Shown: positions 25,401 through 28,400 of the stretch, in pieces
How the letters are laid out: every line of letters starts with the position of its first letter
Position numbering within the stretch: position 1 is the stretch's first letter
DNA from: Ophelia neglecta
Lineage: Eukaryota
Assembly (NCBI GenBank): GCA_965285935.1
Contig: OZ260664.1
Location: forward strand, 80,848,001 to 80,912,000
Reading direction: 5' to 3'
DNA: 64,000 nt
Translations under genes and position numbers: made by a program
The notes under the pieces: generated by a model
What the model was told of the DNA's origin: nothing
Database searches by the model: none
The model's input: only the letters and a program-made list of their open reading frames with translations

Positions 25401-28400
25401 GCAGCTCGCGGAGCTTAGCAAAATCAGCCTTGCTATATATCCACACTTCGCGTTTGAAACAAGACCGTTTAACACTCGGGTGAAATAGATAAGCAAAAAT
25501 AGGTTTGTGGTCGCAGTTGCCGACGATTTCTGGAAGCGTACCACATTCCTGGACAACAGCAGGTGTGTTAGTGAATAAGTGATCAATACAAGAGCCGGTG
25601 TTTTGACAGCCATGTCTAGTAATTTCAGTAATAAGCTGGGTGAAACCCATGCTGTCAAAAGCAGATTTAAACAGTCTGCCGTCCGTATTTGTCATATCGG
25701 AAGAACACCAAGAAGAGTTTTTCGCGTTGGAGTCACCAATAAACATTATTGAATCAAATAAGGAGGAGGCCTTCTCAGCAATACGTTTTAATTCCTCCAG
25801 GAATATGTTCGTGTCAAAACTAGGAGGTTTGTAGTAAAAACACAACATAATTTTACGCGAGTGGGCCTTAACAGATATACAGACGTTTTCGATAGACTGA
25901 GATTCACATGCATGGGAGCGAACTCCATTGAAGGAGTTTGATAGAAAAATAGCGATGCCACCACCCTGTCTGTTTCTGTCCCTGCGAATGGGAATTCTGA
26001 AGCCCGGGAGACCGATATCGCTGTTGTTAATAGAACAATCAAGCCATGTTTCAGACAATGCTATAATATCAAAGTTAGAGTTAGCTGACATTGCCTGCAA
26101 AAAGGTAAGTTTAGGATGACTCGCTGAGCCATCTATTATTGCGGGGCTCATTAGACTACGTATATTCAGATAACATAAGGAAACACATTTCTGGCCGATA
26201 GAGGGACCAGGATTAAGTTCCACGTCTTGGCATATACGAATAAGAGTTGGGGCTATTACGATCAGAAATAAGAGGTTGTGCAGAATAACTGTCCAGTAAA
26301 GTGAATCAACATGGTTTAATCTCTTTAAAGTGAAATAACTGTTGAAGCAAGGAGACGCCCCTAGCTGCAGATCATTAACTGTGAAAGCTGATGTGCCTGA
26401 CTACGGCCCACAGGAGCGACATGCTGGACTGGACACAATGGCAAATAAGGTGATTTGAAACAGCTGACCGGGTTATGTAAACAATGTTATATGGTTCCAT
26501 ACTACAAAACGCTGGAAGTGCAGATTCCAGCGGCCGATTAAATACACGAATGGGTCCATGCTTGGACAAAACACTTTGCAGAAAAATAGAAAGTAAAAAA
26601 TAGTCATGAAAAACAAAAAGAGGCAAATATGTACATAAATACAGATACGCACTGTACACCGTGTGTGTGTACATGAGGAAGTTGGTTGGATTGGACATGG
26701 AAATTCTTAACATTTTTAACTTTCGTAAGACACGTAATAAAGTTTATATGAACATGATGCTGCGACCGAGAACGTCGACTTGGAATTAAAGAACAATAAT
26801 GTAGTTTAATTGGTTCATGGTGTCAATTATAATTAGTTATGATAAAACTGGTAAATAATAAAATCATGTGATGACCGGCACGGGTTATCAAATCAGATAT
26901 ATTGTAGTTTAGTAATATGGTATTTACCAAGTATGACCATAGAATACAATTTGGTCCGAAAAACACTAAAGATAATATATTTATAGTGTAGTCTAGCAAA
27001 TTCACAGTGTTTGTCAATTAAGGTAGGGTTGCAAGATGAGAAAATAAAATGCAGCTCAGTTAGATACTACAGACCAAGTATAGCCTGAATATATATTAAG
27101 GTCCAGGAACATAGTCAAGGGATCATAGATTAATAATATCACCAAACAAATTTAGGATGCTAATTAATAATATTATGATATCAGCGAGTCAAAGATAGTG
27201 GTTATCTAATAAACGGCTATTACAGACTGAGTATGGAAAAGTGATATTTTCTAGATCAAATGACAGTAGAGCTGGAATATACTGATGGGCACAAGAGCAT
27301 AGTCTTAAAATTATGAAAGATCAATGGTGTAATATGAATGTAATATAGTCACAATGCTATATGAGAGTTGGGTGTCTAGTAAATAGTTATACACTGGAGC
27401 AAGTTATCTTCAATAGACCAAGTACTAGTAAAAACCTGAACATACCGATAGATCGAAGAGCACATAGTCTTAGAAGCATGATATATCAATGATGTTGTGT
27501 ATATCTAGAGTCATGATGTTACGAATAATTAAGCAGCATTACTATAGTCCTTATTGTGAAGCAATTTTTCCAAAGTAGCAGGTGGAGAAAAAGCCTTGAT
27601 TGAGAACTTTCGCTGACTGGATTTTGTCCTAAAGAAGATCTTCCCGTTCCAGGACCAGGCCGTTTCTATGGTGTCAGTTTCTTGAAGGTCTCTTAGAAGA
27701 GTGAAATTCGGTTTAGTAAGATCTTCAGCAATAGTTGTACCAGTACCTTTGAGCTTCTTTCGCTGTTTAATGACACAATCTCTGATCTTCCTACTAGAAA
27801 ACTTGACAATGATAGGGTCCGGTTTATCCTTGTTTTTATTCCTAGGGGGGAGAGGGTGTGTGGCTTCTATGTCCGATGAAGTAACCTTAACTCTGAGTAT
27901 GTCATTACACAGGTTTAGTACAGCTTTTTCATAATGATCGTCATCAGCTTTGCAGCCGAATATTCTTATGGATTCCCTCCTAGAATATTGTTCCTGGTCG
28001 TTCGTTCTTTGTTGTAGGAGTCTCAGATCTTTCTCCATGGCCTCGTTTTTAGCCTCTACATCCTCCACTTTTTTCACCAAAGAAATGTTCTCTTTTTCAA
28101 GTTGGTCAATTTTGGCAAGCTTTTCAGCAGCACTCTGTAGGAGGGGCATGTATGTGTCCAATTTACTAAGTGTGGCGTTGAGGACGCTCAATTCTTTACC
28201 TATGATAGATGCCACTTTATCCGCTACCGAGGTGGCTAACCGTTGGTCAATCAAGTCATCTAGTTCGTCCCTAGATATAAACTGAGAAAAGTTGTCGTCC
28301 ATGCCACTCGAGGCCGAAGATTCACGAGCTCGTTTCTCTGGCCTTACCGTTGTGCTCGATTCCGACATTTTGAACAATGGGCGAATGGCGGCAAATACAA

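Follow-up and report, generated by a model that had tools for sequence, protein, structure and literature searches.

2A-like (StopGo) ribosome-skipping motifs occur 40-80 amino acids (aa) from the start of ORF2, the second open reading frame (ORF), in retrotransposons of the CR1, L2, Rex1, Crack and Ingi groups, with activities ranging from high to none (Odon et al., 2013, PMC3708506), and newer screens have extended the retrotransposon set (PMC13405545, bioRxiv 2026.09.24.754024, PMC12338488). We analysed a 64,000-nucleotide stretch of Ophelia neglecta DNA (contig OZ260664.1, positions 80,848,001 to 80,912,000, called the window and numbered from its first letter), which contains a CR1-like long interspersed nuclear element (LINE) on the reverse strand (-). 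A motif of this type lies in front of its apurinic/apyrimidinic endonuclease (APE) domain. A 2A in this position is by itself already known (Odon et al., 2013, PMC3708506), and an earlier note on the window had rightly placed the motif among those of APE-type elements without long terminal repeats (non-LTR).

The nearest described elements, CR1-1_LG, CR1-1_CGi and CR1-17/26/53_BF (PMC3708506), likewise have D(V/I)ExNPGP 40-80 aa from the ORF2 start and right before APE, and CR1-1_LG and CR1-26/53_BF also retain ORF1. The likeness of the reverse transcriptase (RT) to that of CR1-1_CGi and CR1-1_LG is a by-eye judgement. The Ophelia element differs from the elements of Odon et al. (2013) in having Gln for Gly before the Asp and no in-frame AUG, and the start-codon exchange, extended leader cassette and spacer ORF reported below were not found described in the available text of that paper. 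With viral 2A peptides (F2A, P2A; PMC12846837; bioRxiv 2026.09.24.754024) it has in common the canonical octapeptide and hydrophobic residues upstream, and its Leu at 2A position 15 is a common variant. It differs from them in Gln at position 11 and Ile at position 7, and its conserved residues reach -23, counting back from the Asp. Viral 2As of the Asp type have Gly at position 11 in 78 of 80 loci and Asn in two, in a search whose pattern could not match Gln.

Systems of termination and reinitiation are the other relevant comparison. In SART1 (UAAUG), in caliciviruses and influenza B with their termination upstream ribosomal binding site (TURBS), and in human L1 ORF2, a stop lies on or beside the start and near-cognate starts are used (PMC5972666, PMC11485995); the Ophelia element has a UAAUG overlap as well. 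Its upstream ORF is, however, not ORF1 but an unconserved third ORF in a spacer of about 1 kb. It also has no UGGGA motif, and its overlapping AUG is out of the ORF2 frame.

The Ophelia element and its relatives, treated here as 15 families with one representative each, have a selected 2A-like motif before APE, an exchange of ATG, GTG and CTG as the ORF2 start codon between families, with no in-frame AUG in the Ophelia leader, and, in every family, a further ORF in the spacer between ORF1 and ORF2 (the spacer ORF). The parts concerned are as follows.

26375..26743 (-), spacer ORF, open for 122 codons (112 when counted from ATG 26713), frame -1 to ORF2, ending in TAA 26377-26375
26361..26375 (-), mini-ORF of 4 codons whose ATG, out of the ORF2 frame, overlaps the stop of the spacer ORF (TAATG)
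26368..26370 (-), CTG in frame at leader codon -48, a candidate for ORF2 initiation without AUG
26227..26400 (-), leader of 58 open codons with no AUG, dN/dS 0.32 from shared substitutions
26230..26295 (-), hydrophobic stretch, Trp -23 through Cys -2, at a fixed distance from the 2A core
26203..26229 (-), 2A-like core Q-DVELNPG/P, predicted skip between 26206 and 26205
25495..26202 (-), APE endonuclease domain and short linker (PF14529, PF03372; PDB 1wdu, TRAS1 ORF2p, E=0.0011)

Our best reading, which we regard as about evenly balanced between right and wrong, joins these parts into one route. Ribosomes would translate the spacer ORF and terminate on the ORF2 start column, and the terminated ribosomes would restart without an AUG, at CUG 26370 in the Ophelia element. 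The hydrophobic leader together with Q-DVELNPGP would then stall the ribosome and skip in part, and the skip would free a small amount of endonuclease-reverse transcriptase beginning at a fixed proline. The 2A would make the N-terminus of the enzyme independent of a sloppy start site.

The 2A-like core and its leader

The note had matched DVELNPGP to the consensus D(V/I)ExNPG/P, and the core does lie in frame ahead of APE, at 26226-26203 (-), 13 residues before the first endonuclease Asn. The frame is open upstream of GTG 26223, as had been said, and this GTG is the Val codon of DVE. The 58 open codons before the core fall inside the 40-80 aa range of LINE ORF2 2A-like cassettes. We accept the reading that the endonuclease-reverse transcriptase would start at Pro after a skip.

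About 2e-4 matches are expected by chance in the six frames of the window, and the back-translated core has 277 matches genome-wide against 0 for a reversed control, 59 of the 100 matches listed belonging to one tandem array. The motif or a one-residue variant stands ahead of APE in 77 of 85 related loci of this genome (45/45 in the first set, 32/40 in the second). D, N, P, G and P are invariant in all 15 family representatives, with varied codons, and between the Ophelia family and its sister family six of the seven conserved core codons differ synonymously and none by replacement. The alignment of genomic copies that the note had proposed as a check came out in favour of conservation. A DNA search gave 20 loci, 17 of which cover the motif, and Q-DVELNPGP without an in-frame Met is present in 15 of these, being deleted in L006 and mutated in L007, the oldest copy. 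Seven of the 15 go back to a single truncated insertion that was duplicated together with its flank, and the number of independent insertions is therefore nine. The Gln, correctly singled out as replacing the usual Gly, is CAA in every copy with the codon retained. By these comparisons, the 2A-like core is kept under selection.

The hydrophobic stretch reported before the motif is confirmed: the Ophelia leader scores 2.16 in its best Kyte-Doolittle window of 19 residues, and leaders of all 15 families reach 1.73-2.37, whereas the Ophelia ORF2 after the 2A does not exceed 1.38. The stretch aligns without gaps in fixed register to the motif, with an aromatic residue at -14 in 15/15 families and Trp at -23 in 11/15. 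Aromatic -14, Asn -17 and Trp -23 hold this register in homologues from other organisms, in counts biased by the use of a profile built from these families.

In most families the leader starts M-x-x-x-x-Q-Y-R-x-x-I-G-x-F. The Tyr is residue 7-9 in 40 of the 53 homologues with this motif, and its distance to the 2A ranges from 41 to 70; with a steady position near the start and a variable distance to the 2A, the motif is tied to the start. In the Ophelia family this N-terminal motif is absent, as is any in-frame ATG. No Pfam family covers the leader, and a literature search with the leader motif strings found no relevant paper. Replication outside the genome is thin: 31 of 80 metagenome loci with flanks have an APE-like motif after the 2A and one of the 80 has this leader type, with a second among 40 short loci that has only 84 nt upstream. 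None of 80 viral loci with a 2A was LINE-like.

The note went further and proposed a switch, in which unskipped ORF2 protein (ORF2p) would remain joined to a signal-anchor leader and go to the endoplasmic reticulum, and skipped ORF2p would be free. The hydrophobicity found in every family is consistent with this. The stretch lies 30 to 9 residues before the skip, and would hence still be in the ribosomal tunnel at the skipping decision, for the tunnel length that we assume. There is also a precedent in the sea-urchin NLR proteins, whose 2A peptides are signal sequences when unskipped and, like the Ophelia leader, consist of a hydrophobic N-terminal segment ending in 2A; these are host peptides of 26 aa that start at an AUG and whose dual targeting has been measured, whereas the Ophelia leader is about 50 aa long and AUG-less (Roulston et al., 2016, PMC4981915). 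On the other side, the fixed register of W-23, N-17 and F-14 suggests contact with the tunnel, Leu-rich helices are part of active 2As (PMC13405545), and the low skipping predicted below would mistarget most ORF2p, yet the family is active. The fixed register would fit exit-tunnel contact at least as well as targeting, and we consider the switch unlikely, bearing in mind that the alternatives discussed here are not fully mutually exclusive. The membrane-insertion sum of the leader is marginal and is not relied on.

Similar motifs were seen in other contexts. A further LINE family (L281, L285, L287, L295) has a leader of at least 110 codons, SG-DIELNPGP and a linker of about 35 residues before APE. 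At L283 (G000:C1:66497808-66500830) a YR-type leader and CN-DIELNPGP precede not an endonuclease but Herpes_teg_N (PF04843, E=6e-8), which we take to be a deubiquitinase. L316 (G000:C1:140744900-140762000) is a tandem 27-bp array of DIEVNPGP-like 9-residue repeats, with an open frame of 457 aa containing 20 NPGP; it is apparently duplicated 13.5 kb apart and has no hydrophobic upstream context.

The ORF2 start and the spacer ORF

The 58 codons that follow the upstream stop (26403-26401) and lead up to the Asp contain no ATG. The first in-frame Met is aa 84 (26151), past the first APE Asn (aa 79), so translation must begin upstream of aa 79. After a skip this Asn would be residue 14, presumably the position of the matching Asn in human L1 endonuclease. 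The missing leader AUG, which the note had overlooked, is the more unusual feature. Twelve sister families have a recognisable leader start, and the codon at this one aligned position is ATG in eight, GTG in three and CTG in one. It is fixed inside families (GTG in 7/7, 2/2 and 2/2 loci, CTG in 6/6). In the Ophelia family, CTG 26370 is the only near-cognate codon between -58 and -34 and is kept in 9/9 other covering copies; an out-of-frame ATG 5 nt upstream of it is kept in 8/10 other copies. The exchange of start codons and the AUG-less leader, as read from these alignments, appear to be new here, and no description of a non-AUG CR1 ORF2 or of start-codon exchange was found in a literature search of incomplete coverage.

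Ribosomes could also enter the leader by shifting +1 where the spacer ORF ends, with no restart, after which the 2A would remove the whole N-terminal extension. Three families that lack both the usual start and Gly at position 11 (Ophelia, L066 and L056) have in common TCAGCTGTT, then CACAGTT about 75 nt on at the spacer-ORF end, with both frames open, and in this block the Ophelia family differs from its sister by two indels, of 3 and 6 nt. We take the AGU-U at this end to be like the Ty3/EST3 shift sites. But in the 12 other families a start codon occupies this place and the overlap is only 6-40 nt, older Ophelia copies read CGCAGTT, no stimulatory structure was found, and the fourth family without Gly (L051) starts with GTG. 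A frameshift is, in our judgement, improbable.

The Ophelia spacer ORF stops at the aligned ORF2 start column and is open in six of the nine loci read, and its first ATG is kept in 7/7 other covering copies. In the sister family this frame is open for 136 codons and ends alike. An open run of 65-222 codons outside the ORF2 frame occurs in each of the 15 representatives (frame -1 in 11, frame +1 in four), and in 13 of them it contains an AUG. In 12/12 families whose ORF2 start is defined, the stop is +1 to +32 nt away from that start; the start column of the other three (again Ophelia, L066 and L056) was set by hand and their distances are not counted. Comparison with dinucleotide shuffles gave a Fisher p of 1e-9. 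Stop triplets are sparse in all frames here, and a second test was therefore made in which their positions were fixed and only the frame was randomised. This gave a Fisher p of 4e-6, which became 5e-6 with better representatives and 6e-4 on removal of three related or duplicated families. Stops by frame number 52/30/17 in the region -250..-30 against 66/57/66 further upstream. A control anchored 300 nt upstream, which covers 5/15 families, gave p>=0.27 throughout; at a 55-codon cut chosen post hoc, the shifted anchor scored 4/15 and the reverse strand 1/15.

Two LINEs were held out. A distant family in the same genome has 77 codons and a stop at +7 (p=0.38), with four of five loci alike and the fifth having a different upstream sequence, and a contig of another organism has 71 codons and a stop at +5 (p=0.03). 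The pattern did not fit a leader-2A before a non-LINE domain, or the L117 family, which is without this leader type. We found no account of a spacer or third ORF in 2A-bearing CR1 elements in the literature covered, which is incomplete and includes the available parts of PMC13343379 and PMC11203168, and such an ORF ending on the ORF2 start seems, from the families compared, to be new here.

The spacer-ORF peptide as a conserved protein was considered and rejected: there is no Pfam match, shared changes are 9 replacement and 2 synonymous, and there is no codon-position bias (p=0.26). Lack of peptide conservation is expected of a ferry ORF. In one family, copies swap which frame is open. No 7-mer common to the family spacers rose above shuffles. 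Splicing is unsupported, AG with pyrimidine tracts being scattered and the deletions, judged by eye, not GT-AG, and a candidate AGCUGU/ACAGUU helix was rejected on a pair probability of 0 in the two families folded. In the L054 family (e.g. G000:C7:106210000-106217500) a degenerate second leader with DIEPNPGP, about 280 nt upstream, lies in frame within a spacer ORF of 222 codons, and the stop of that ORF overlaps the real ATG.

The spacer ORF could instead be a by-product of local composition, with ORF2 reached through an IRES (internal ribosome entry site) or an internal promoter. Stop triplets are indeed sparse at -300..0, where each bin holds 44-60 of them and 66-77 would be expected. Most families have a YCAY-rich tract with its maximum at -200..-150 (55 hits in that 50-nt bin, compared with about 15 elsewhere), the peptide lacks conservation, and an IRES has been proposed for such spacers (PMC3894237). 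The frame bias nevertheless persists with stop positions held fixed; moreover, neither structure nor Rfam gave a signal, AUGs ahead of the start show no depletion, and the YCAY tract is weak in the Ophelia element. We think this explanation improbable. The tract itself, 200-150 nt upstream of the ORF2 start, is found in most sister families (L053, L055, L057, L078).

Weighing the proposed route

Termination and reinitiation is favoured because it accounts both for a stop placed on the ORF2 start and for the loosened choice of start codon. Stop-restart is known to accept non-AUG starts (PMC5972666), translation of L1 ORF2 is AUG-independent (PMC11485995), and a long megabat L1 spacer stripped of its AUGs gave retrotransposition below that of the intact spacer (PMC4072516). 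Luke et al. held reinitiation to be improbable across long spacers, and proposed an IRES (PMC3894237). From the alignments we infer translation of the spacer ORF, the stop-driven restart (CUG 26370), and the occurrence and level of skipping. The spacer-ORF AUG is about 800 nt past the ORF1 stop, and the ribosome's route across this gap lies outside the proposed model.

Several observations weigh against this route. The closest AUG to the end of the spacer ORF is not in the ORF2 frame, and it would be a competitor of the CUG. Taken singly, five of the 15 families reach p<0.05, and the Ophelia family has p=0.17; the families are related (tree) and the anchors were chosen post hoc. Some of the stops come from the leader's own codons (NTG-A giving TGA). 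Both hold-out LINEs fit, at a combined p of 0.065. The TURBS core UGGGA is present within 130 nt in 1/15 families, folding near the start gave no signal (z -1.4 to +2.5), and the clustering of AUGs near -225 is marginal (p=0.04, or 0.10 without one family). As for the skip, position 7 is Ile in the Ophelia family and Leu in 14/15 families, L7 being a key tunnel contact (PMC12846837); its positions 6 to 9, L-I-R-I, are hydrophobic, and there is one Leu in -19..-10. A profile search, of which the best 150 of 799 matches were used, gave 100 homologues with the first APE strand after the motif, and position 11 in these is Gly in 71, Asn in 18 and Gln in none. Substitutions of G11 mostly abolished P2A and F2A activity, N and I being tolerated (bioRxiv 2026.09.24.754024). 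Finally, 13 rows match QDVE/QDIE in the table of Snell and Matreyek (PMC13405545 supplement), 10 of them in register, and these 10 natural Q-D(V/I)ExNPGP 20-mers were all non-skipping, two with reduced protein.

In the same table Gly forms often fail (CGDIELNPGP skipped in 1/6, another Gly form in 3/7, the first 7 of 18), and Asn-bearing analogues do skip (PMC13405545). Among our families, position 11 is Gly in 11/15, Gln in the Ophelia family, and Asn, Cys and Glu in the other three. The published 20-mer assays leave out the conserved residues at -14, -17 and -23. Because of Gln at position 11 and Ile at position 7, the Ophelia 2A is predicted to skip weakly. The interpretation in the earlier note therefore holds for a selected 2A-like motif, and is qualified in that skipping is predicted to be poor.

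The same two residues, and the failure of the Gln analogues, would suit a motif that no longer skips in the Ophelia family and acts as a stall or attenuator only, with ORF2p keeping its leader or starting at GUG 26223. Most retrotransposon 2As assayed lowered protein levels (PMC13405545), and this GUG, inside the motif, has G at -3 and +4. However, the leader stays open with synonymous change above expectation (dN/dS 0.32, from small counts), the NPGP codons are still strictly selected, and the Asn-bearing analogues do skip. Position 13 is Ile in 11/15 families, so a GUG start is not general. We regard loss of skipping as rather unlikely, and retain the route through partial skipping.

The element, its copies and long-spacer LINEs

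The remaining parts of the element are listed here.

22689..28613 (-), full-length CR1-like LINE, about 5.9 kb, with 5' and 3' ends common to copies
28614..28624 (-), 5' copy of the 11-bp target-site duplication
22678..22688 (-), 3' copy of the 11-bp target-site duplication
27529..28368 (-), ORF1, 279 aa, shared-substitution dN/dS 0.16
26401..27528 (-), ORF1-ORF2 spacer, T-rich, 1.13 kb
23908..24654 (-), reverse transcriptase domain (PF00078, E=1.7e-35)
22689..22995 (-), 3' untranslated region with a short A-rich end common to copies

The ORF2 frame, 22996-26400 (-), has 1134 open codons, with Pfam matches at aa 92-302 (APE) and aa 583-831 (RT). ORF1 had nothing above family cut-offs in Pfam, only weak coiled-coil matches. 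A scan of 22400-29400, spacer included, against Rfam gave no match, and the ESM Atlas returned eukaryotic clusters only, at 0.91. The LINE sits within an intron, antisense to the host gene, which has kinase-like exons. The flanking host exons (21195-21473, 31952-32203 and 32241-32495, all +) match PK_Tyr_Ser-Thr, and presumably resemble receptor guanylate cyclase. At the 5' end of the LINE, 28565-28604 of the window is a 20-bp tandem duplication that is not in the two other 5' ends seen.

Substitution rates were taken from 17 of the 20 fetched copies, omitting three divergent ones, and a substitution present in at least two copies was called shared. For shared substitutions dN/dS is 0.16 in ORF1, 0.16 in APE, 0.27 in RT plus C-terminus and 0.32 in the leader, as against 0.73, 0.82, 0.68 and 0.45 respectively for private ones; the leader value rests on 5 synonymous and 5 replacement events. 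The nearest copies are 99.6% identical across ORF2. A search with the 3' end, in which 40 of 360 candidates were scored, found many 5'-truncated copies with identity up to 100%. The element has an intact ORF1 and ORF2, a target-site duplication, 5'-truncated copies and purifying selection, as an autonomous APE-type non-LTR element should. From the difference between shared and private dN/dS, and from the near-identical copies, it is concluded that the LINE family is autonomous, young and recently active, and has evolved under purifying selection.

Some copies have features of their own. The full-length copy L091 (G000:C1:15123700-15130200), 99.6% identical over ORF2, has a private 52-nt deletion between short direct repeats, which takes out most of the 2A and shifts the leader out of frame with ORF2. 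L010-L016 (G000 C8, C9, C12) are one 5'-truncated copy, starting at window-equivalent 26404 and multiplied, along with the repetitive sequence flanking it upstream, at least seven times. The 5' truncation points form a loose group 350-550 nt above the 2A motif, a grouping made post hoc. Three runs of one sample, compared as contigs, gave no GT-AG joint and no 2A-motif variant among the differences listed.

For CR1-like elements with kilobase spacers more generally, a three-step relay may apply, although we hold this wider claim to be doubtful: a ferry ORF free of sequence constraint, a restart free of AUG, in which the start has drifted to GUG, CUG or none, and a 2A of about 30 residues that would work even with Gln and would cut off the leader, giving every enzyme molecule the same first proline. 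A selected Gln variant offers a test of whether conserved residues beyond the 20-mer rescue a 2A called inactive by current rules. How ORF2 is translated in long-spacer LINEs is a named open question in the literature on 2A-bearing retrotransposons (PMC3894237). The 15 related families described here have a third ORF on the ORF2 start, together with ATG, GTG, CTG and AUG-less variants in one genome, and these natural start variants make the question testable by simple reporters.

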